From the IMG/VR virus record IMGVR_UViG_3300025120_010521: a stretch of 64,000 bases of DNA; one strand, given 5' to 3'. The translations under genes and the position numbers were made by a program. Origin of the DNA: a virus. Lineage: Duplodnaviria; Caudoviricetes. Of this stretch, positions 3,768 through 63,517 are shown in pieces. Positions within the stretch are counted from its first letter, which is position 1. The number at the start of each line of letters is the position of its first letter. Under the pieces are notes generated by a model. That model saw only the letters and a program-made list of their open reading frames with translations, was not told the DNA's origin and ran no database searches.

Positions 3768-4313
3768 TTAGGCGACTTTAATTAAATTATCATCCCATTT
3801 TAAATAGGATTTCCAACTATGATGAGGAATTATCAAAGGAAACTGCGATCTTTTTCCTGCTAGTTCCCAATAATCTGGCCTATAAGGCATTTGTTTTGGC
3901 CTAATATTTTGACTGCCTTTTTCAACATTACAAGTCATACATGATGTTACTATGTTTTCCCAATGCGAATGTCCACCTGCTGATCTTGGTACAACATGAT
4001 CTAATGTAAGGTCTTTCCAGTTTTTATCGTCATACTCACATCCGCAATATTGGCAAGTAAACAAATCTCTTAGATAAACATTGTTTCTTGAAAATCTAGG
4101 ATGCCTAGCTAAATTTAAATATTCTTTTGCTATTAATACACTTGGTACGTGCATTTCAGTTGAAGGGCTGTGAATTATCCAATCATCATAATGTTCTAAA
4201 ACTTTAAATTTATCTAGCCATATGAATTTGATTGAGAGATGCCAATTTACTGCACTAATGGGCAATAAACTTAACGGAGATCCGTCTGCATTTAAGATTA
4301 ATGTATCACTCAT
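3768..4313 (-). CDS. HNH endonuclease (McrA-like)
   Basis: RDLFTCQYCG, TLDHVVPRSAGG, NIVTSCMTCNVEKG. Confidence 0.9.
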   Translation of the reverse strand: MSDTLILNADGSPLSLLPISAVNWHLSIKFIWLDKFKVLEHYDDWIIHSPSTEMHVPSVLIAKEYLNLARHPRFSRNNVYLRDLFTCQYCGCEYDDKNWKDLTLDHVVPRSAGGHSHWENIVTSCMTCNVEKGSQNIRPKQMPYRPDYWELAGKRSQFPLIIPHHSWKSYLKWDDNLIKVA

Positions 4314-4397
4314 TGTTATATTTGTTTATATTTAGTTTTAATTCTTATTAATATAAAGTATCATGTTATGGTTTGTCAACCGGGGTTAAATACTTAT

Positions 4398-4898
4398 ATG
4401 GCACGTTTATTATTCTTAATCATTGCGTTATTTACATTTTTAAGTGTATCTGCTAAAGCAGAGCAACCAGATCTTGCAGATAACAAAGATTATCAATCAT
4501 TAGCTGGAGACTTTAGAATGTATTCAGTATGTCAATCAATACATCAAAACCTTGCTATGTTTATTGCTATAAATTATGGTGTTGGTTCAAATTTAAATTT
4601 TCCTGAAGATTGGAAAAATCAACAAAGATCTTTAATTAATAATATTGTTATACAAGAAGAAACATTTGGCAACAAACTTATTGTAACAATACAAAAATTG
4701 CATGAAGAATTTGGTATGCCATTACAAGGTTTACAAAATCAAAAAGCAAGAAATCAATCACAAACAACGCAATCAATTATATTTACAGTTGCAGGATCAA
4801 TTAACGATCCAGATAAAGTAACATTGACTATTAAAAATATGCTAAATGAATCTGTTAAATGTAGAGCATATAAGTCTGCTTATAATTACGAGAGGTAA
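4398..4898 (+). CDS. hypothetical secreted protein (start moved from 4368 to 4398)
   Basis: MARLLFLIIALFTFLSVSAKA signal peptide; TAAATA at 4387-4392 lies 5 nt before the ATG. Confidence 0.6.
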   Translation: MARLLFLIIALFTFLSVSAKAEQPDLADNKDYQSLAGDFRMYSVCQSIHQNLAMFIAINYGVGSNLNFPEDWKNQQRSLINNIVIQEETFGNKLIVTIQKLHEEFGMPLQGLQNQKARNQSQTTQSIIFTVAGSINDPDKVTLTIKNMLNESVKCRAYKSAYNYER

Positions 4899-18923: not shown

Positions 18924-20777
18924 TTAACCGAAAGTTACACCGCTGTTAACAACAACACCGCCTGATAGTGTCATTTGAATTGAAGCATCATTAATTGTTA
19001 ATGTATATGCTCTGTCTTCATAGTCGAACCCGTTAGTTGATCTAACTGTAAAGTTATATGATCCGCTTGATGAAGGATCTGGTGTGCCAGATAAAATACC
19101 TGAAGAACTTAATGTTATTCCGCTTGGTATAGTTCCAGTCTCTATTGAATGTGTTACTGTGTGCAATTGTTCCGATGCTGAATTTCTAAAAGTAGAAGAT
19201 ATGTCATAACTTTGATTTGTACCTTCATTTAAACTTCCTAAAGATCCTGCACCAGTATTCCAAGTAATTGTGTAATCTTGATAAGGTTGATAAGCTCTAT
19301 TTAGATTTGATAGTGCATATCCACTAATTGCATTGTCAATATCACCATTACCTTGAATAAATGTTTTTGCTGAAATTTGATTGTCTTTTGTTGATACTGC
19401 CCCAAACGTACTTGAATCTGTATCAAAGTAACAAGCAACTAATCCTGCTACCTGTGGCGATGCCATCGACGTTCCTTGTAATTTATTTAGATAAAATCCT
19501 GTTGCACCAATTTGTTGTGCTGAACCAGAATTTATATATGCACTAATAATTCTTGTACCAGGGGCCCATACTGTTAATGGTTCTCCGTAGTTTGAAAATG
19601 ATGCTTTTGCAAGATTGGTGTCATGTGCCATAACACTTATATCGTGTCTTGTTGATGTTCCTGATTCTATCCAAGCATTTGATGGCGACTGTCCATTATT
19701 AGTTGCTTGAAAATAAATTGTATTTCCATAACTACCGCTTGGAGGTGCACCAGGTGTTCCTGTTCTTGAACCCGTACCATGTACATTTGGATCATGTGCT
19801 GATGCATCTTCTTTGTAAATTTTTTCATTAGTTCCATAGCCCAAGTCATTGCCTGAATCAAAGAAATACCAATAACCTGAATTCCAACCTGACTCTGTTG
19901 AATCATAAACTCTCTCATTGTCATTACCTGCTGATGAAACTGTTACTATTCCTGCGTTGTGCATATTTTTAACAAGTGTATCATAAGAGCTTGATCTTGC
20001 CATATGATATTGACTGCTAGGAATATTACTTGCGTCCCATGATGCAGGATTAATAAAATGTGAAGGATGGTTTGGTGGATAGTAAGTTGACGTTGCCCAA
20101 CTCATGTTTACCACTGTTGGTTTACCTGTGCCTTTTGAATTATGCCAAGTAGTAATGTACCCCATTGAACTTGCTGAGTATCCATAACTAACACTGCCTA
20201 AATTTGTAGTGAAAGGATAAATTTGTGCATCTCTGGCCCACCCTTGTGTTCTACCTGCTACTGTGCCTGCAACGTGTGTTCCGTGTCCGTTTGAGTCTGT
20301 ATAAAAATTAGCACCTTGTGATCCGCCCCAACTGATTTGATTTATTCTTGATGATGAGTTAGACGACAAGTCATTGAATTCTGGATGTCCTACAACAATA
20401 CCTGTATCCATGATAACACAATCAACATTCGCACCTGTTTGTGAATATGTAAAGTTAGTTGATAGTGTTGTACTGTTTTGGGTCATTTGTGCAAGTCCCC
20501 AATTATGATATGATGTGTTTACTGTTGATGTTGTGTTTGGATTTATAGTTGCTGATGCATCAACATCAAATTTTAATTTCTTTTCGTAATCCTCACTGTT
20601 TGCACCTGCTACTTTTTCTGAATTTAACCATTTGTCAAACTGTGCTCTATCAGTCATTTCTGCCCAAATAATTTCAGGAATAGAAGCATCTGTGATAGTT
20701 ATACCATCAGCTTCTAATTCAATAATTAGCTGGTCTTTTGTAATAATATCTAAGTTAGGTACAATTAGTGCTTTCAT
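18924..20777 (-). CDS. subtilisin-like S8 serine protease with C-terminal Ig-like domain
   Basis: Catalytic triad DTGI / HGTHVAGT / GTSMASP; C-terminal GTIPSGITLSSSGILSGTP...GSYNFTVR. Confidence 0.9.
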   Translation of the reverse strand: MKALIVPNLDIITKDQLIIELEADGITITDASIPEIIWAEMTDRAQFDKWLNSEKVAGANSEDYEKKLKFDVDASATINPNTTSTVNTSYHNWGLAQMTQNSTTLSTNFTYSQTGANVDCVIMDTGIVVGHPEFNDLSSNSSSRINQISWGGSQGANFYTDSNGHGTHVAGTVAGRTQGWARDAQIYPFTTNLGSVSYGYSASSMGYITTWHNSKGTGKPTVVNMSWATSTYYPPNHPSHFINPASWDASNIPSSQYHMARSSSYDTLVKNMHNAGIVTVSSAGNDNERVYDSTESGWNSGYWYFFDSGNDLGYGTNEKIYKEDASAHDPNVHGTGSRTGTPGAPPSGSYGNTIYFQATNNGQSPSNAWIESGTSTRHDISVMAHDTNLAKASFSNYGEPLTVWAPGTRIISAYINSGSAQQIGATGFYLNKLQGTSMASPQVAGLVACYFDTDSSTFGAVSTKDNQISAKTFIQGNGDIDNAISGYALSNLNRAYQPYQDYTITWNTGAGSLGSLNEGTNQSYDISSTFRNSASEQLHTVTHSIETGTIPSGITLSSSGILSGTPDPSSSGSYNFTVRSTNGFDYEDRAYTLTINDASIQMTLSGGVVVNSGVTFG

Positions 20778-20786
20778 ATGTTTATC

Positions 20787-20842
20787 CTAGTATATGGCAC
20801 CTTAAAACTGGACTAAGACGCCATTATATACTAGTATTTATA
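20787..20842 (-). promoter_or_regulatory. TATAAATA late promoter followed by a leader hairpin overlapping the AGGA RBS
   Basis: tatttata 20835-20842; arms CTAGTAT(ATA)ATGGC / GCCATATACTAG. Confidence 0.65.
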
Positions 20843-20844
20843 AA

Positions 20845-21000
20845 CTATATTCCTTGCATACGATCATCTTTAGATAACAAGTTTTTTTTGGCTTTTGGCC
20901 TAGCAACAGAGTCTTGTGAGCGTTTTCGTAAAATTGCTTTAGCACTGATTTTGCGTTTTAGATCTGCTAAGGGTTTCTTTAAATCCCATTTAAAGTTCAT
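20845..21000 (-). CDS. small Lys/Arg-rich protein, 51 aa (not in ORF track)
   Basis: MNFKWDLKKPLADLKRKISAKAILRKRSQDSVARPKAKKNLLSKDDRMQGI; strong SD AAGGAGGG. Confidence 0.8.
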   Translation of the reverse strand: MNFKWDLKKPLADLKRKISAKAILRKRSQDSVARPKAKKNLLSKDDRMQGI

Positions 21001-21028
21001 ATCACCCTCCTTATGTTAAAAGTTAGGT

Positions 21029-21073
21029 GCGTTCCTTCGCTTATGCTACTTCCGTCCCATTGGGATGAACGAT
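21029..21073 (-). ncRNA. glnA RNA motif (glutamine-I riboswitch)
   Basis: AUCGUUC-A-UCCC(AAU)GGGA-CGGAAGUA-GC(AUAA)GC-GAAG-GAACGC: P1, P2, the GGAAGUA/GAAG E-loop and a short P3 match the known consensus. Confidence 0.85.
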
Positions 21074-21081
21074 TGTACTAG

Positions 21082-21089
21082 TATTTATA
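21082..21089 (-). promoter_or_regulatory. T4-type late promoter TATAAATA upstream of the riboswitch
   Basis: Exact octamer, 8 nt before the aptamer. Confidence 0.7.
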
Positions 21090-22092
21090 TACATAAAGTT
21101 TCAAATTGTAGCATTAATCTATTTTCATTACCTATTCCACCATCGCCTTGTAATTTGAATGGTTTTGCCATATGGTATCTTTTGTTGTCCCAACTAATTA
21201 ATGTTCCTGGTTGACCAAAATATAAGATTTTATTTAATGATAACCCACTTAATTTTTCTATTGGAAATTGTTGTTTAAATCTACCTATTATGTTTGGGTT
21301 TGTTATAGGCTTCATCATCTCCATATAGTCCTTATGGGGGAAAGGTTTGTTAGTTAATCCTCTTACATATTCACCAAATCTTTCAAATAAGCCATTGTCA
21401 TCTTTACACCAAGTTATGCAAGGTCTTTTCATTTCATCGAGATTATCAACATTATTAACTATATCATAATATGTACTATATGGAAACCATTGGTCAAATA
21501 TAATTGTAGCTTTGTCTGGTTGTGCATCTAAGTTTACTAACCCTTGATGTGCATATTTAAAATATTCTACAGGATCATATTCTTGTTTTAAATATTTTGG
21601 ATGATGTTTTGGTCTTGGTGATTTATTTTTTAATTTTTGAAAGATGTCTTGACCATCACAATGAATTTTTAATGATGACCCAAAATTGTGAAATGCAACA
21701 TCAACAACCTTAGCAGGTCTGCCTATTTCTTCAAATCTTTTTTCCATTATACTAATAGTATCTTTTAGCCAGTTGTTATATTTTTGTATAAATTCAAATC
21801 CATCATCTTTGTGCCAAAAATCTAACTGTACTCTTTTTTCTTTACTATGTTTTTCTTTATTTCTAATAGCTGAAACAATTTGACTCCATACTACATCCGG
21901 TGTTCCTTTTCTACTAAAATTTGCTTCTTCTATTCTCATGTATGACTTATCATGGTCAAATTTTTCAATTTTGTTTAATACATCATTATACAATTTCCAA
22001 TATCCATCAGTGACAAATTTTAATTCTGATTCATTAAAAAAATTTGGATACTGCAAAGAGTCATATAGATTTTCATTATAAAATTTATTCAT
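21085..22092 (-). CDS. hypothetical protein, possible 2OG-Fe(II) oxygenase fold
   Basis: LKIHCD (HxD), distal WDNKRYHMA His and NRLML Arg in the typical order. Confidence 0.45.
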   Translation of the reverse strand: MNKFYNENLYDSLQYPNFFNESELKFVTDGYWKLYNDVLNKIEKFDHDKSYMRIEEANFSRKGTPDVVWSQIVSAIRNKEKHSKEKRVQLDFWHKDDGFEFIQKYNNWLKDTISIMEKRFEEIGRPAKVVDVAFHNFGSSLKIHCDGQDIFQKLKNKSPRPKHHPKYLKQEYDPVEYFKYAHQGLVNLDAQPDKATIIFDQWFPYSTYYDIVNNVDNLDEMKRPCITWCKDDNGLFERFGEYVRGLTNKPFPHKDYMEMMKPITNPNIIGRFKQQFPIEKLSGLSLNKILYFGQPGTLISWDNKRYHMAKPFKLQGDGGIGNENRLMLQFETLCI

Positions 22093-23026
22093 TACAGTCC
22101 TTAACAGTTATATTTGGAAAAGGCTTATCTTCTAATCCAGATGTATTTTCTAATACATTAATTTTAAATTCTATTTTACTAGAACTTATTTCTTGTAAAT
22201 TTACTATCCTTTGATAATAACTATGAGAGCCAGTAAATGGTCTATTAGGATGATTTGTCATTACATAATCTTTATCTAAAGTAGCATTAAAATATAACAT
22301 TGCGTTATCGTTAATTGATGGCTTTGTTTTAAAATCAACCACAGATTTAATATATGCGTTATCATATAAATCTAAATCATCAATAGTTTTAAATTTAAAT
22401 AAGGTATGATCAGACTCTGATTGAGAAAGTTTATAATAGAACTCCGTAGTATCGTCGCCACCTACAAAGTAGGCTGTATCTAATAAATCATTTGGTAATA
22501 ATGATTTTAATATTTCTAACTTAACTGGTGCCTGAACACAGAAATCTAGATCTTTTTGTTTAGGTACTATATAATTGCCATATGCTTTTAATTCAAATTG
22601 TTCAGGTATTTGTTTTGGAACATTATATCTTTTAACAAAATCTAAAAAATCGTACAACATTCTACTTTCAAAAAGATGATCACCAATACATTCAGAAATG
22701 ATTAGATCCACTTTTAAATTAGATTTTTCTTTTAAAAAGGATTGGCTTGTTCCTACATATACTTCTATAATATCTTGCATGTTGTTTATTTTTATATTGT
22801 GTTTAAGCTGTTCTGCTACAATTAGATCTTCTTCAATTGCGTAAACTTTTTTTGCACCAAAATGTGCGGCAATTATTCCAAGTACTCCAGTTCCTGCACC
22901 AAAGTCAATAACCGTATCTCCTTTGGTAACTTTGTTTTCAATTGCTTTAAAATATAAAGACATTCTGTAACTGTCGTTAACCATAATGTCGTGTGATATA
23001 GAATTTATATACTTGCCTTTAAACAT
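22085..23026 (-). CDS. class I SAM methyltransferase, PRMT-like
   Basis: HDIMVNDSYR..Y.KAI, VIDFGAGTGVL, VYAIE, VDLIISECIGDHLFES double-E loop. Confidence 0.75.
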   Translation of the reverse strand: MFKGKYINSISHDIMVNDSYRMSLYFKAIENKVTKGDTVIDFGAGTGVLGIIAAHFGAKKVYAIEEDLIVAEQLKHNIKINNMQDIIEVYVGTSQSFLKEKSNLKVDLIISECIGDHLFESRMLYDFLDFVKRYNVPKQIPEQFELKAYGNYIVPKQKDLDFCVQAPVKLEILKSLLPNDLLDTAYFVGGDDTTEFYYKLSQSESDHTLFKFKTIDDLDLYDNAYIKSVVDFKTKPSINDNAMLYFNATLDKDYVMTNHPNRPFTGSHSYYQRIVNLQEISSSKIEFKINVLENTSGLEDKPFPNITVKDCNE

Positions 23027-23570: not shown

Positions 23571-24023
23571 TTAAATTAGACTTTGAAAAGTACCCTGTTT
23601 ATTAATTGTAAGTACTTGTTTTCGGTTATCGGCATTGTCTTTATATGATATATGAACCCAGCCACTACGTGGGTCCTTGCCATTATAAAATTCAAGTATT
23701 AGCTGATCGAAGTCTAAATTGTTTTTGATCCATTCTGCTAAATCTCTATTGCTGAGAGTTGGTACTTCTATATCTGCCGCTTCTCCAAAACAATGCTGTG
23801 ATTTTTTGGAACCACCAATTGCTGTGTTTAATTTTTTACATCTATAACCTGAATTAATTACTGTAGGACCAAACTTATCTCTAACAGGCTGTAATATTTC
23901 TTCTGCAAGTGTTTGCATTTTAGAAACAATATCAGGATCTTTTGGTAAGTTATCAATACCTTTACGTAATGCTGTTTGACTTTTGCAAAGTTCTGCTAGT
24001 GAAAAATTATTAGTGAGTTGCAT
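23571..24023 (-). CDS. Peptidase M15A (endolysin-like)
   Basis: NSGYRC, SQH..GEAAD, WVHISY. Confidence 0.9.
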   Translation of the reverse strand: MQLTNNFSLAELCKSQTALRKGIDNLPKDPDIVSKMQTLAEEILQPVRDKFGPTVINSGYRCKKLNTAIGGSKKSQHCFGEAADIEVPTLSNRDLAEWIKNNLDFDQLILEFYNGKDPRSGWVHISYKDNADNRKQVLTINKQGTFQSLI

Positions 24024-33451: not shown

Positions 33452-34063
33452 TTACTCATTTACTATCTCCTTAAATTGATCTAACGTAACTGCTGATTCA
33501 ATTTTTATTATATGATGATTTAGTGCAAGTTTACATAACATTACATCATCGTGGTCAGTTAAATATAATACAGGATTACACCAATAAGTTCTCCATCTTT
33601 CTTTTTCTTTTAGTAGAGAATTTAATGACGATCCAAATCTATATCGTGATGGATCTTTTTCTGTAAAAAAATTAAGAAACCAATCAATTGATTTTTCCAT
33701 GTTAGTATGTGCACCAAATGTCATTTTATACGAATACCTATTCCAAAACAATCTGTTTCTTGTAATACAATCTTTGTTGTCCATTAAATATTCATAATGT
33801 TTTTTATTATAAGGCTCGTATACTTCTTTTACCCATTTACCATGATTATTAATAATATATTCTAAATCTTTACGTTTTTTAAAAAACATTTGTATTGTTC
33901 TTGCATGACGCATTTGATAATTTTCTTTGTTTTGTGTTTTTAACCACTCAATCATTTTTCGCATATCTTCATAATAAAAGTCCAGATCAAATCCTTCACT
34001 TACTAATACTGCTTTGTAAGGAAATTTACTATAAAATAATTTTGTTGTTGTTTCAAATTGCAT
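33452..34063 (-). CDS. hypothetical protein
   Basis: 203-aa ORF. Confidence 0.6.
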   Translation of the reverse strand: MQFETTTKLFYSKFPYKAVLVSEGFDLDFYYEDMRKMIEWLKTQNKENYQMRHARTIQMFFKKRKDLEYIINNHGKWVKEVYEPYNKKHYEYLMDNKDCITRNRLFWNRYSYKMTFGAHTNMEKSIDWFLNFFTEKDPSRYRFGSSLNSLLKEKERWRTYWCNPVLYLTDHDDVMLCKLALNHHIIKIESAVTLDQFKEIVNE

Positions 34064-36291
34064 TATTGTTTGTATTCAAGTTCTAGTTTATCGTTGACTG
34101 CTTTAACAATTACTGTACCACCATTAATTAACTTACCAAATAGTATTTCTTTTGATAATGGACGTTTGACATTTTGATCAAATATTCTTTGCATTGGTCT
34201 TGCACCCATTGACGGATCAAAACCTTTATCAGCAATCCATCGTGACGCTGTGTCATCAAGCACTACAATAACTTTTTTGTCTTTTAACATTTCGTTTGTT
34301 TCATCTTTAACTTTATTAACAATTTTTAAAATATTATCTTTTGATAACTTGTTAAATTGTATTGTTGCATCAAGTCTGTTTCTAAACTCAGGTGCAAAGA
34401 AGTCTTTTACGTAATCATCAGTTGCATTAACTGAATCAGGACGACCAATACCCATTGGTGGTTTTTCACTTGCTTGAGCACCTAAGTTAGAAGTTAAACA
34501 CAAAATGACTTTGTTAAACATCACCGTTTTACCTGTCGATGATGTTAGTTTACCGTCATCCATTACTTGTAACAATACTTGTAATACTTCTGGTGCTGAT
34601 TTTTCAACCTCATCAAGTAGTAGTACACAGTTTGGATTATCTTCAACGTCATTAATTAGCTGTCCTGAGCCAATTGATCCTTCTGCATATCCTACATAAC
34701 CTGGAGGAGCACCAATTAATTTTGATACTGAATGTCTTTCTTGATATTCTGACATATCATATTTTAATAGTTTAATTCCTAATGAGTCTGCTAGTTGTCT
34801 ACAAACTTCTGTTTTACCAACACCTGTTGGACCTACAAACAAGTATGATCCAATTGGTTTATTAAATGGTCTTAACCCTGCTTTTGCAATCATAATAGAA
34901 TCAACTATTTTTTCAATTGCTTCATTTTGTCCATATACTTTTGTTTTAACTTTACCTTCTAAACCAGCATAGTTATCAGTTTGTTTTTCATCAATAACAT
35001 CCATAGGAACGTTTGAAATTTTGCTTACTTGTTGTTGTATCATATGCTTTGTAACTGATGGTGCCTGTGCCAATTTTGCTTTTGCACCTGCGGCATCAAT
35101 AACGTCAATTGCTTTATCTGGTAAAAATTTATTGTGTATAAATCTATCTGCAAGATCAACTGCTAAATCAACACATCCATCATCATATTTTGCTTGATGA
35201 AACTTTTCATAGTATGTAAGAATACCATTTAAAATTAATTTTGCATCTGTTTTACTTGGTTCACCTAAGTCTAATCTTTGGAAACGTCTCATTAATGCAC
35301 GATCTTTTTCAAAGTTTTCTCTGTATTCTTCAATTGTTGTTGTACCAATACACAATAGTTTACCTTTTGCAAGTATTGGTTTTAATAATGTACCAAAATC
35401 CATGTTTGATTGTCCGGCACTACCTGCACCCATTATCATATGTACTTCGTCAATGAATAGTATTACATCTTTTTGTTTTTGTAATTTATCTAATACTACT
35501 TTTGCACGTTCTTCAAAGTCACCTCTAAATTTTGTGCCTGCCACTAATGAAGCAACGTCTAATGAGTAAACTATTTTATCTTTAATTGCATCAGGAACTT
35601 GTTTATCTACAATTTTTTTTGCGATACCTTCTGCAATTGCTGTTTTACCAACACCAGGTTCACCAACAACAATACAATTATTCTTTTTACGTCTTGCAAG
35701 AATATGCACAATGTCATCTAGTTCTGGTTCTCTACCAATTAGTGAATCAATTTTTCCATCTTTAGCTTCTTTGTTTAAGTCAGTACAGTAATCTTCAAAT
35801 CTAATTCCACCACCTGGCTCACCGCCCTGTTGTCTTTCTTGTAAACCAACGTCTTCACCGTATCTTTCTTTTGTTAATTGTTCGATGATTGCTTGTCTTG
35901 TAATATTGTTTTTCTTTAAAAAGTATAACGCATGACTATTCTTTTCACTTAATAAACTTACGAAGATGTCTTTAATAGTTAACTTTTTTCTTCCAGAGAA
36001 TATAACTTGGGTCACTGCTCTATTAAACACTCTTTCTAAAGCAGATGTTTTGCGTGGTGCATCTGATGATTCTACAACAATATCTTTTAATCTAGTATCA
36101 AGATATTCTGAACAGTCAACCATAACTTGTTCAATATCGCCTTTAACATCTACAATTAAAGACTGTATTTCTTTTTCATCGGATAATGCTAACAAAAGAT
36201 GCTCGAGCACCACATATTCGTGGTTACGTTCCGAGGCATACTCCATTGCTTTATCTAGTACGGATTCTATCGGATCGTATTCTTCAGCCAT
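34063..36291 (-). CDS. clpA: ClpA-type AAA+ chaperone/unfoldase
   Basis: Clp N-domain, two Walker A motifs (GEPGVGKT, GPTGVGKT), GAPPGYVG, MGARPM; no ClpB middle domain. Confidence 0.9.
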   Translation of the reverse strand: MAEEYDPIESVLDKAMEYASERNHEYVVLEHLLLALSDEKEIQSLIVDVKGDIEQVMVDCSEYLDTRLKDIVVESSDAPRKTSALERVFNRAVTQVIFSGRKKLTIKDIFVSLLSEKNSHALYFLKKNNITRQAIIEQLTKERYGEDVGLQERQQGGEPGGGIRFEDYCTDLNKEAKDGKIDSLIGREPELDDIVHILARRKKNNCIVVGEPGVGKTAIAEGIAKKIVDKQVPDAIKDKIVYSLDVASLVAGTKFRGDFEERAKVVLDKLQKQKDVILFIDEVHMIMGAGSAGQSNMDFGTLLKPILAKGKLLCIGTTTIEEYRENFEKDRALMRRFQRLDLGEPSKTDAKLILNGILTYYEKFHQAKYDDGCVDLAVDLADRFIHNKFLPDKAIDVIDAAGAKAKLAQAPSVTKHMIQQQVSKISNVPMDVIDEKQTDNYAGLEGKVKTKVYGQNEAIEKIVDSIMIAKAGLRPFNKPIGSYLFVGPTGVGKTEVCRQLADSLGIKLLKYDMSEYQERHSVSKLIGAPPGYVGYAEGSIGSGQLINDVEDNPNCVLLLDEVEKSAPEVLQVLLQVMDDGKLTSSTGKTVMFNKVILCLTSNLGAQASEKPPMGIGRPDSVNATDDYVKDFFAPEFRNRLDATIQFNKLSKDNILKIVNKVKDETNEMLKDKKVIVVLDDTASRWIADKGFDPSMGARPMQRIFDQNVKRPLSKEILFGKLINGGTVIVKAVNDKLELEYKQ

Positions 36292-46333: not shown

Positions 46334-46940
46334 TAGGATCGTGTGTAAGATTAGACATCTGTTCTAATCTAGTTGTTGGATATTTGTCTCTGTTTTTAAG
46401 AAATTCTTCGTGATGTATCATTTTACCATTAACAAGGAATCCCCAATGATCACCTTCTGTTTTTTTACCCATAAAAAATATACTCCAACAAGGAATTTCA
46501 TTGCCATTTTCATCTTTGGCTAATTCTAAATAGTGTAAATCTTCTGCTTTTCTAAATCTTATACTGCCAGGACCCCTCCAAAATTTACCTTTAGGAGTAT
46601 GTTCCCAATATCCACCTTTTAATATTATAGCACCCCAATTCCAAGGATGACTATGTAGTATTGGTTCATCACCTAACATCACTTTGTGTAATGTAAAGTT
46701 AAAAGGAAAGTTTTTTCTATCTTTTAAAAACAAATAGTATCTCACAAGATACTCTCGTGTATTATCTCTGTTGTAAATAATTCTTTTTCTATCTTTAAAT
46801 AATGTTGATATCAATAACACTGCAAATACTCCCACACATGCAATAAACATAATTGTTGTTTTAAATACCTTGACAACTGTTTCTGCTACATCTACTTTTG
46901 AAACTATTTCTTCTGCTTTAAACCAAATATCTTTGATCAT
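46320..46940 (-). CDS. putative cupin-fold protein
   Basis: LHKV...LHSHPW...GGYWE...HYLEL His pattern. Confidence 0.5.
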   Translation of the reverse strand: MIKDIWFKAEEIVSKVDVAETVVKVFKTTIMFIACVGVFAVLLISTLFKDRKRIIYNRDNTREYLVRYYLFLKDRKNFPFNFTLHKVMLGDEPILHSHPWNWGAIILKGGYWEHTPKGKFWRGPGSIRFRKAEDLHYLELAKDENGNEIPCWSIFFMGKKTEGDHWGFLVNGKMIHHEEFLKNRDKYPTTRLEQMSNLTHDPIAHC

Positions 46941-47863
46941 GTTCCTATCGCATTACCAAAAAGATAAACGTGAACTCTCGCCGCGACATTGTAACCACGT
47001 TTGAAAGCCTTTTCGGCAACCTTTCCTGCACCTGCTGTTTGTTCTTCTTCTCTTGCACCTGTAGGCATAACCCATACTGGCCAATCAACACCTTGTGCTT
47101 TAAAAAGTTTAATTACTTCTTCCATTTCTTCCCACTCTCTATCATCAGGACCTACCACAAACTTTAATTGTCCTTTGCTAGAAAGTTTTCTATACTCTGC
47201 CACAATCTCAGGCTTGATTGCTTTTTCTCTTTTCTCACCGGATACTGTAAACAGTTTAGGACTACAACTAAAGAATATTTCTGTATCAATTCTGTTAACC
47301 CAATCAATAAATGGTTGTCTAAGTTTTTGTGTGCCATTAGTTTCAAATGTCATCGATCCAGGCAAGTTACCTTGTCTTTCAAGTTCTTCATATATGCCTA
47401 TGGTTGCTGTTTGTCCTGTAACCATTAATGGCTCTCCACCTGTGATACACAAATGTTGACTTTGTCCTGTTACTGGGTGTTTAAATAATCCTTGTGGATT
47501 ACTTTCATTCTTCATTATATCAACTATTTTGTTTGCCATCACAGTTGGTGTTTCTTGACCCATCAGCTCTTTAAACTTCTTAGCCCATGTGTAACTTGAA
47601 TCACAACCTTTGTCCCAAACAGGCAAGTCTTCAACTTTGTCTACACTAGATACATCAAAATTTTCAAATGGCAAATCATATGTGTCTGGGTTGGTTGGAT
47701 CTATTTGCCCAAACCCATTGCATTGCAAATTGCACAAGAAGAAACGTATCCATGCTGTTGGAACACCTGTGTAATGTCCTTCACCTTGAATACTGTGAAA
47801 TATTTCAGAATAATAGAACTTCTTTTCTACAGTTTTACCAAACTCATGTTGTGCTAATGCCAT
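46937..47863 (-). CDS. queE: QueE-like 7-carboxy-7-deazaguanine synthase (radical SAM)
   Basis: SEIFHSIQGEG..TG.P..W.RF, CNLQC...GCDS, ITGGEP, ETNG, SPKL. Confidence 0.85.
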   Translation of the reverse strand: MALAQHEFGKTVEKKFYYSEIFHSIQGEGHYTGVPTAWIRFFLCNLQCNGFGQIDPTNPDTYDLPFENFDVSSVDKVEDLPVWDKGCDSSYTWAKKFKELMGQETPTVMANKIVDIMKNESNPQGLFKHPVTGQSQHLCITGGEPLMVTGQTATIGIYEELERQGNLPGSMTFETNGTQKLRQPFIDWVNRIDTEIFFSCSPKLFTVSGEKREKAIKPEIVAEYRKLSSKGQLKFVVGPDDREWEEMEEVIKLFKAQGVDWPVWVMPTGAREEEQTAGAGKVAEKAFKRGYNVAARVHVYLFGNAIGT

Positions 47864-50741: not shown

Positions 50742-51428
50742 CTACCTTGGAGCAAATTCTTGTTGTAATTTAATATTGTCCATAAACTCTTTTTTAGTTC
50801 CTTCAATATTTTTAAAATCACCTCTTAACACTGTGGTTTGTGTTAAACTACTGTGTGCTTTAATACCTCTGTTTTCACAGCAACCATGTGTTGCTTGTAC
50901 ATACACACCAACGTGTTCACTGCCTGTTTGCTTTTGAATTGCGTTAGCAATCATAACATTAAGTTCTTCTTGTAGTGTTCCACGTTTTGCACACCATTGT
51001 GCAATTCTTGTGTACTTGCTTAAACCTAATAGTTTAGGACCAGCAATGATACCAATGTATGCTACACCAGACACTGGCTGGTGATGATGTGAACAAACAC
51101 TTTTAAGTTCACTTCTTACAACAAGCATACCTTCATATCCATTTTCAATGTAGTTAGGAAATGCACTTGGATTAGGCATGTCTTCATATCTGCCACTCAT
51201 GATTTCGTTGATGTACATTTTTGCCATACGCCTTGCAGTATCTTTGCTGTTAGGATCTGTTTCAGTATCTATTAGTAAACTTTGTAGTACATTTTCAAAA
51301 GCAGGAACTGCCTCATCAATTAGTTGTTGTTTTTCACCTGGCTCAATATATTTAGAGATATTATCATTAGCCCAGTATCTTGTGTTGTTATCTTTTAGTC
51401 TCTGTAGAATTTTATCTTTTATTTTCAT
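50742..51428 (-). CDS. folE: GTP cyclohydrolase I; likely start 51428
   Basis: TARRMAKMY, CSHHHQP, GLSK..RI, RGTLQE, HGC...RG. Confidence 0.95.
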   Translation of the reverse strand: MKIKDKILQRLKDNNTRYWANDNISKYIEPGEKQQLIDEAVPAFENVLQSLLIDTETDPNSKDTARRMAKMYINEIMSGRYEDMPNPSAFPNYIENGYEGMLVVRSELKSVCSHHHQPVSGVAYIGIIAGPKLLGLSKYTRIAQWCAKRGTLQEELNVMIANAIQKQTGSEHVGVYVQATHGCCENRGIKAHSSLTQTTVLRGDFKNIEGTKKEFMDNIKLQQEFAPR

Positions 51429-51434
51429 TACCAT

Positions 51435-63121: not shown

Positions 63122-63517
63122 TTAATTTGCTAAAGGATTTGTTGCTTTTAATCTTACTTCTTCAATTTTAGAATCTTGTAATTCATTTACTTTTGATTGA
63201 ATTTCAATATCTTTTTGTGCTTCGGCCATTTCTGTCCATAGCTCTTCTACATCTGCCCAAAGTTCATTAATACCTTCGTCTGATTCAGAACTCATTTTAT
63301 CTTCAATTATTTTGATTCTATCAATTACTTCGACTCTGATGTTAGCAATTTTATCATTTACAGATGTAAGATCTACTGTTTGATTTACAATAAAATCTTT
63401 ATTTTCAATTGCTGATAGTCTTGTATTAAATTCACCCCATGCGTAGAATCCACCACCAATTGCACCTATTACACCAATAAGCGATGCATAAGTTGTTAGT
63501 TTATCAATTATTTTCAT
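63122..63517 (-). CDS. hypothetical membrane-anchored coiled-coil protein
   Basis: N-terminal TM (LIGVIGAIGGGFYAW), heptad region. Confidence 0.6.
   Translation of the reverse strand: MKIIDKLTTYASLIGVIGAIGGGFYAWGEFNTRLSAIENKDFIVNQTVDLTSVNDKIANIRVEVIDRIKIIEDKMSSESDEGINELWADVEELWTEMAEAQKDIEIQSKVNELQDSKIEEVRLKATNPLAN

Follow-up and report, generated by a model that had tools for sequence, protein, structure and literature searches.

A glutamine riboswitch ahead of a phage-only basic mini-protein gene in a T4-type marine phage, with a probable translational ON design

Which gene does a glutamine-sensing RNA control in the genome of a marine phage, and in which direction? The question is raised by one short locus in the window, by which we mean the whole 64,000-nucleotide stretch of viral DNA analyzed here (IMG/VR record IMGVR_UViG_3300025120_010521). 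An initial annotation, made from the letters alone, described a promoter box, a glutamine aptamer, a strong Shine-Dalgarno (SD) sequence and a Lys/Arg-rich open reading frame (ORF) of 51 residues, one after the other on the minus strand. This layout was borne out. From 5' to 3', the elements are:

21082-21089, minus strand: exact 8-mer TATAAATA, a T4-type late-promoter-like box 10 nt upstream of stem P1
21026-21073, minus strand: type 1 glutamine riboswitch aptamer (glnA RNA, RF01739), by covariance-model match and stem covariation
21003-21029, minus strand: expression platform, a two-part hairpin, by folding and by pairing kept in the leaders
21006-21012, minus strand: Shine-Dalgarno sequence AAGGAGG, 5 nt upstream of the start codon, with GGAG conserved in aligned leaders
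20845-21000, minus strand: 51-codon ORF for a basic mini-protein (ATG 21000-20998), by homologs and dN/dS
20829-20842, minus strand: second box with its 6-nt flank, an identical 14 nt, preceding a Peptidase_S8/He_PIG gene with its ATG at 20777

The box overlaps the TAA stop codon (21087-21085) of an upstream 335-aa ORF. The spacer between the aptamer and the SD is 13 nt, and the aptamer's 3' end lies 25 nt from the ATG. The second 14-nt box-plus-flank starts three bases past the stop codon of the 51-codon ORF and marks the 3' border of the unit. We found no intrinsic terminator near the unit, within it, or between the 51-codon ORF and the Peptidase_S8 gene; transcripts may run on into that gene, so that the unit is perhaps not fully independent. 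Just upstream of the unit (21085-23026, minus strand), the window carries two genes that its close relative, locus L025, does not have: a PrmA-like methyltransferase gene and the 335-aa ORF, which matched no family. Searched by megablast, the 4.2-kb region had no match among GenBank phages. In public sequencing runs, the DNA of the locus occurs in marine metagenomes of 14 studies, and none of the runs listed that contain it is an RNA dataset.

To establish the identity of the RNA, we scanned the whole window with Infernal, the check that had been proposed for it. Just two Rfam matches rose above threshold, one tRNA and the glutamine aptamer. The aptamer scored 56.9 bits against a gathering score of 35 bits for RF01739 (E 6.9e-10, for the whole window against 4227 families), spanned model positions 1-53 of 53 and matched all strongly conserved positions of the consensus. 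It had been described as complete and minimal at 45 nt; it is complete, covering the full model, but its length is 48 nt. Among 14 control genomes, RF01739 was found in Synechococcus only.

The aptamer consists of stem P1, in which 21071-21067 pair with 21034-21030, plus two small hairpins. We fitted 27 leaders, 24 of them distinct in sequence, to the model. Standard pairs occupy 90.9% of the alignment cells, compared to 80.9% after shuffling and 33-55% with the partners slid; nine pairs have changed on both sides across the 24 distinct homologous leaders, and none of 500 shuffles matched the observed structure values. All four pairs of the first hairpin have changed on both sides, and RNAalifold was concordant. 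P1 does not vary apart from a single compensatory change, C-G to U-A, in Pelagibacter phage Mosig, and the junction strings are invariant across 22 leaders. The element is thus a genuine type-1 glutamine aptamer by sequence and structure, and as such it would be expected to bind glutamine.

The ORF behind the aptamer is a real, conserved gene. Over 842 pairs drawn from 55 distinct 51-codon alleles, the median dN/dS was 0.14, with values below 1 in 99.8%. Variation is greatest at third codon positions, and of the five other frames, four average three to five stops. The ORF track had missed this gene, and its standing as a coding sequence is upheld by the dN/dS and by the 561 relatives that a back-translated scan recovered from IMG/VR. 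A perfect 8-bp hairpin also lies over codons 2-9 of the window ORF (20975-20998, minus strand); relatives do not conserve it, and we dropped it as a functional element.

From marine metagenomes, a word-indexed search returned 13 cluster representatives that are 67-88% identical and almost all of a length of exactly 51 residues. An HMMER profile search of 1.84 billion representative proteins returned 53 clusters, all of 31-125 residues, and no link to any larger or known family. Fourteen family members had no match in Pfam, DUF4278 included, even at E 10; the peptide matched nothing in PHROGs, NCBIfam, PADLOC or ESM Atlas features, and PDB sequences gave just one chance match (E 2). The suspected link to phages of SAR11 was confirmed by homologs in four cultured Pelagibacter phages (Mosig, with Mosig_00116, HTVC023P, HTVC103P and HTVC104P), where the gene is annotated as a hypothetical protein. 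The ORF had been taken for unannotated, but its homologs in Mosig, HTVC023P, HTVC103P and public protein catalogues already bear that name. In about 185,000 species genomes of cellular organisms we found two matches, one on a Thermoplasmatales MAG scaffold and one on a Flavobacterium SAG scaffold, both without an aptamer; we read both as phage DNA in the bins.

The peptide is rich in Lys and Arg, with a net charge of about +11. AlphaFold predicted a single helix (residues 3-30) followed by a flexible basic tail, with a pLDDT of 78. The 51 residues include no hydrophobic stretch and no Cys, and the model is that of a soluble amphipathic helix with a basic tail. The two-thirds toward the C-terminus are the best conserved, distant members differ in the N-terminal helix, and the family has invariant arginines.

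In T4, late promoters of the form TATAAATA are read by the gp55/gp33/gp45 system. An exact box upstream of the aptamer had been reported, and we found it at 21089-21082, with box and spacing conserved in the leaders: of 22 aligned leaders, 21 keep the TAAATA core unchanged 8-10 nt upstream of P1. Non-coding DNA makes up only 6.6% of the window, yet each of the five coding-strand copies of TATAAATA there falls at a gene boundary, four of them no more than 120 nt from a gene start. As in T4, then, the exact 8-mer stands at gene boundaries, on the coding strand, just before a transcribed element. Unlike in T4, the late-transcription proteins of this phage were not located within the window. A T4 gp33 homolog was among those not found within these 64 kb, and we therefore infer late-promoter use from the motif, its position and its conservation. 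With a T4-like start about six bases past the box, the aptamer would form the 5' end of the mRNA.

The window does encode a clamp loader, a T4-type DNA polymerase and T4-type replication proteins; its DNA polymerase is closest to those of the jumbo phages Phosso and Atu_ph07 (47-51% identity). Near-perfect sigma-70-type promoters (TTGACA-N17-TATAAT) stand before coding-strand genes at about 47904, 45957 and 28527 on the minus strand, and are probably early promoters, contrasting with the TATAAATA boxes. The window further contains several radical-SAM genes and a Lon-like ATP-dependent protease (34063-36291). A QueE-like radical SAM gene (46937-47863, minus strand) and a GTP cyclohydrolase gene (50742-51434, minus strand) suggest a 7-deazaguanine pathway.

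How would the aptamer act on the gene? The platform hairpin folds with -9.1 kcal/mol (z -4.0), and none of 200 shuffles folds as well. In its outer helix of 5 bp, CACCU (21029-21025) pairs with GGGUG (21007-21003), the first base being the conserved C just 3' of P1 (C21029). In its inner helix of 3 bp, CUU (21022-21020) pairs with the AAG of the SD (21012-21010). The two-part hairpin, which buries the SD, formed in all 23 distinct leaders, with a variable inner helix and a loop of 3 to 10 nt. The outer helix is invariant within the main peptide family; compensatory variants, CACUC/GAGUG and CACUU/AAGUG, occur in divergent members of the 51-aa family. As the sequestering helix of the main family is short (5+3 bp) and unvarying, its covariation comes from a few divergent lineages. 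The Methylophilales phage Melnitz has an outer helix of the CACU type and Mosig a CUCUU/AAGGAG hairpin. When we folded 123 viral aptamer tails crudely, 39 paired both the first C and the SD, so the SD-sequestering design is not universal. Another candidate, a pairing seen by eye between a strand of the window's first hairpin and the SD region, was rejected: it is not conserved, and the stem varies.

A precedent for this arrangement exists in cyanobacteria. For Synechocystis gifB, Klahn 2018 (PMC6212724) proposed that the ribosome-binding site is paired to the C after P1 together with adjacent bases, and that bound glutamine pulls this C into a long-range pair and so melts the helix; the same work showed induction by ammonium/glutamine, with a reporter whose expression increased upon ammonium. 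The platform described here has the arrangement proposed for gifB, and by this analogy we read the window element as a translational ON switch. Transcription from the TATAAATA-type promoter would start a few bases before P1 and place the aptamer at the 5' end of the mRNA. When glutamine is scarce, the five bases that begin with the conserved C after P1 would pair with the 3' part of the ribosome-binding region while a second short helix takes up its 5' part, so that the SD is buried and the 51-codon ORF stays untranslated. When L-glutamine binds, the conserved C would be drawn into the aptamer's long-range pair, the sequestering helix would open and the ORF would be translated. Such a switch would act on translation only, ON with glutamine, and its product, a phage-specific and strongly basic mini-protein, would be made only in nitrogen-replete infected cells. 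We put the probability of this main reading, in which a giant marine phage of T4 type carries a self-contained late-gene unit with glutamine-ON translation of the 51-codon ORF, at roughly 0.75.

We then asked how firmly the switch and the gene belong together. In Mosig and in 12 of 15 metagenome loci, Rfam places the aptamer 24-26 nt upstream of the start codon of the homologous ORF. A scripted search over 96 peptide starts found the aptamer core upstream of 47; roughly every second fetched locus is without an aptamer. The aptamer and the 51-codon ORF occur together in at least five unrelated neighbourhoods, with a changing gene after the ORF. T4-like phages have the pair directly after the genes for the prohead protease, the scaffold and gp23, with its own late-type promoter. 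In myophage contigs of 128-165 kb it lies between Hsp20-like and peroxiredoxin-like genes (named by eye from terminal sequence), elsewhere it adjoins a 2OG-Fe(II) oxygenase gene, and in Mosig it stands beside an Asp/Arg hydroxylase gene and tRNAs; the window adds a further setting.

One set of loci presents the switch as a clean insertion or deletion. Loci L052 and L046 differ from L032, L080 and L095 by a 73-nt indel that is exactly the aptamer plus the platform, while their flanks agree at about 90%. Where the aptamer is missing, the promoter box stands 8 nt from the ATG and there is no SD, which suggests a nearly leaderless mRNA. The switch is thus an optional regulatory cassette on a gene that is otherwise constitutive from the same promoter. 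A perfect TTGACA-N17-TATAAT promoter comes after the peptide stop codon here. In two other loci (L058 and L099), the roughly 40 nt upstream of the peptide start keep the platform tail and the SD but no aptamer, and look like remnants of aptamer deletion. Directly after the peptide gene, L001-L004 carry a manA RNA (RF01745, 59.3 bits) and a freshwater-2 RNA (RF02980, 73.3 bits) at 4217-4583; three structured RNAs there fall within 700 nt, downstream of genes for gp23, a cellulase-like protein and AdoMet decarboxylase.

What the peptide does is a separate question, and we weighed three specific roles, with the rest of the probability going to something else. The first, which we hold only tentatively and consider improbable as it stands, is a lysis or late factor: a cytoplasmic lysis accessory such as a holin modulator, with the riboswitch tying lysis timing to the host's nitrogen status. 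It comes from the podophage copies, which have no aptamer and are translationally coupled, with ATGA overlaps on both sides. Their neighbours are a GTA_holin_3TM holin gene on one side and, on the other, phrog_20984, whose product combines a coiled coil with an N-terminal membrane helix; one to four genes downstream comes an endolysin gene of the Amidase_2 or M15 type. In one lineage, the gene overlaps the stop codon of the holin gene (PF11351, E 1.3e-10), its own stop overlaps the start of the membrane-anchored coiled-coil protein, and an Amidase_2 endolysin follows downstream. More than 25 loci that lack the aptamer, arranged in several gene orders, have phrog_20984 next and an M15 or amidase endolysin nearby. 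The closest relative of the window, L025, has the order M15 endolysin, 102-aa ORF, switch-plus-peptide unit; the M15 endolysin lies 1 kb upstream of the unit there and 2.6 kb upstream in the window. On the other hand, the riboswitch-bearing myophage loci mostly have neighbours unrelated to lysis (gp23, and the proteins judged by eye to be Hsp20-like and peroxiredoxin-like), further small basic ORFs are present in the podophage region, and the peptide contains neither a membrane segment nor a signal peptide or lipobox. The association is one of gene neighbourhood. Complex prediction for the peptide with its cognate holin (locus L028) gave a score of 0.00, which is neither support nor counter-evidence. 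A broader version, in which phage glutamine riboswitches mark a class of nitrogen-gated micro-proteins and the 51-residue family, encoded between the holin and coiled-coil genes in abundant SAR11 podophages, is a cytoplasmic lysis-timing factor that ties myophage lysis to the glutamine pool, seems to us more doubtful still.

The window's Peptidase_M15_3 endolysin (23571-24023, minus strand) is 51-57% identical to those of HTVC023P and locus L008. A 131-aa window protein (63122-63517, minus strand), which combines an N-terminal membrane helix with a coiled coil, shares 33% identity with HTVC023P gp48, whose gene stands directly 3' of the peptide gene in that podophage. Directly after the podophage M15 endolysin is a conserved, extremely basic 46-aa ORF (HTVC023P gp50, L018 2491-2631; L008 5679-5819). 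We rejected this ORF as a spanin lipoprotein; it is another basic mini-protein.

The second role, which we regard as doubtful, is a nucleic-acid-binding or virion-packaged basic peptide, like the T4 internal proteins, made together with the head proteins. The net charge of about +11 and the predicted helix with a disordered basic tail would suit it, as would the T4-like loci in which the gene comes right after the prohead protease, scaffold and gp23 genes with a late-type promoter of its own. A capsid-targeting leader ending in hydrophobic-x-Glu was rejected, however: the protease site is inconsistent across the family, and the window copy has no Glu. The N-terminus is equally conserved in podophages, whose fetched loci have no T4-type prohead protease, and glutamine gating of a structural component has no obvious reason.

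The third role is the one that the initial annotation had favoured, in which the peptide tunes host glutamine synthetase (GS). By analogy with IF7/IF17, it would inactivate the host enzyme at high glutamine and spare ATP/glutamate for the phage. The regulatory logic and the RNA class are those of gifB/IF17, and the peptide is small, basic and Arg-rich, with invariant arginines. SAR11 is described in PMC3870248 as having no PII/NtrBC regulators, and host glnA is induced in pelagiphage infection (PMC12753301), which makes GS a plausible target. Beyond this analogy, the proposal found no support. IF17 and IF17-like proteins are defined by DUF4278 (Klahn 2018, PMC6212724); a riboswitch precedes the gene in the window and in about half of the fetched loci, but the peptide has neither DUF4278 nor another family match, no remote homolog appeared among 1.84 billion proteins, and every relative found belongs to its own phage family. 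The riboswitch is missing from half of the fetched loci, and the podophage copies sit in lysis cassettes, a setting that does not suggest a role in nitrogen assimilation. Being small and basic is not specific either, with at least seven unrelated peptide families after phage glutamine aptamers. Finally, the Melnitz host is said to lack glnA (Buchholz 2022, PMC9004378), yet Melnitz has an analogous switch-plus-peptide unit. We consider a GS inhibitor unlikely.

The weakest alternatives concern the switch itself: the aptamer might govern RNA upstream of it, or the Peptidase_S8 gene by read-through, or be an OFF switch. The first has a published basis. Buchholz 2022 (PMC9004378) reported glutamine riboswitches in Methylophilales phage Melnitz, Pelagibacter phage Mosig and pelagimyophage MAGs, and assigned the Melnitz aptamer to ssrA: its tmRNA was said to be "controlled by" the switch, and lysis through curli pores was speculated on. 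We re-examined the Melnitz locus (MZ577097.1, L016 1499-1668). By Rfam, the tmRNA ends at 1491; the aptamer follows at 1499-1547, then an SD and a basic 32-codon ORF (ATG 1571). In the GenBank record, the SsrA feature is stretched over the aptamer, and a 33-aa ORF is called on the opposite strand instead of the 32-codon ORF. Relatives of the 32-aa product recur after aptamers in viral contigs (for example, L146). Since the Melnitz aptamer comes after the end of the tmRNA and before the 32-codon ORF, the published tmRNA assignment is probably wrong.

Viral aptamers at large are likewise mostly followed by short ORFs. We surveyed 120 IMG/VR stretches matching the aptamer core, with 131 cores in all. 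An SD and a short ORF follow 125 of the 131 cores; these ORFs have a median of 37 residues (16-83) and a median net charge of +6, reaching at least +3 in 90%. They fall into at least seven unrelated families, and 11 of the 125 belong to the 51-aa family by profile. One family has YRG repeats that, by eye, we take to resemble the IF17/DUF4278 type.

A riboswitch acts on sequence 3' of it, and in Melnitz what lies 3' of the aptamer, itself 3' of the tmRNA, is an SD and a conserved 32-codon ORF, which argues against an upstream target. For the Peptidase_S8 gene, read-through is favoured by the lack of a terminator between it and the 51-codon ORF, but this gene has its own promoter box, and the aptamer stays with the 51-codon ORF in at least five unrelated neighbourhoods that differ in the next gene. 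The SD-sequestering design fits an ON switch. All three alternatives are very improbable, and the 51-codon ORF is retained as the probable target.

How does the unit compare to known systems? It resembles Synechocystis gifB in its RNA class (RF01739), in the proposed C/ribosome-binding site pairing with ON by glutamine, and in a small basic product. It differs in that the window product has no DUF4278 and no detectable homology to IF17 or IF7, in that the unit is phage-borne with a T4-type late-promoter-like box in place of a host nitrogen-regulated promoter, and in that the phages are those of heterotrophs (SAR11-type), not cyanobacteria. With the phages of Buchholz 2022 (PMC9004378) it shares the aptamer class and the ecology; Mosig has the aptamer-plus-51-codon unit, and the window aptamer and leader are 81% identical to those of Melnitz over 77 nt. 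That report described no downstream ORF, whereas here the target is a conserved small ORF. In the window and Mosig this ORF is of the 51-aa family; Melnitz has another one, unannotated and of 32 codons.

Glutamine-binding leaders directly before short conserved ORFs are also known from the glutamine-II class (RF01704). Weinberg 2010 (PMC2864571) described the downstream-peptide motif before conserved ORFs of 17-100 codons, of no known family, in marine picocyanobacteria, and these ORFs were later tied to DUF4278 (Klahn 2018, PMC6212724). That RNA, though, is a pseudoknot fold in cyanobacterial hosts, and the window element is of type 1 with unrelated peptides. Cyanophage papers list glnA RNAs with their targets unnamed, and Zaragoza-Solas et al. 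2020, using another tool, found none in pelagimyophages. Phage glutamine riboswitches are thus already published, and the RNA is one more member of an established class, in a context described before. The novelty lies in recognizing the gene under its control as a phage-only mini-protein family common to cultured SAR11 phages, and in the expression platform and the natural presence/absence polymorphism of the switch.

The surface ocean, in which nitrogen is often the limiting nutrient, is dominated by SAR11 and its phages. The gene that the glutamine switches of pelagiphages and giant phages face is now identified as a widespread, phage-only family, and the assignment of the Melnitz switch is probably to be revised from the tmRNA toward its 32-codon ORF. 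The family is present in culturable phage-host pairs (Mosig and HTVC023P on HTCC1062), and near-identical phages with and without the 73-nt switch provide a natural, built-in control. If the peptide is translated only at high glutamine, the unit would connect the course of infection directly, at the molecular level, to nutrient status. Should the lysis-timing reading be true as well, the moment of myophage lysis would be tied directly to the glutamine pool of the host.
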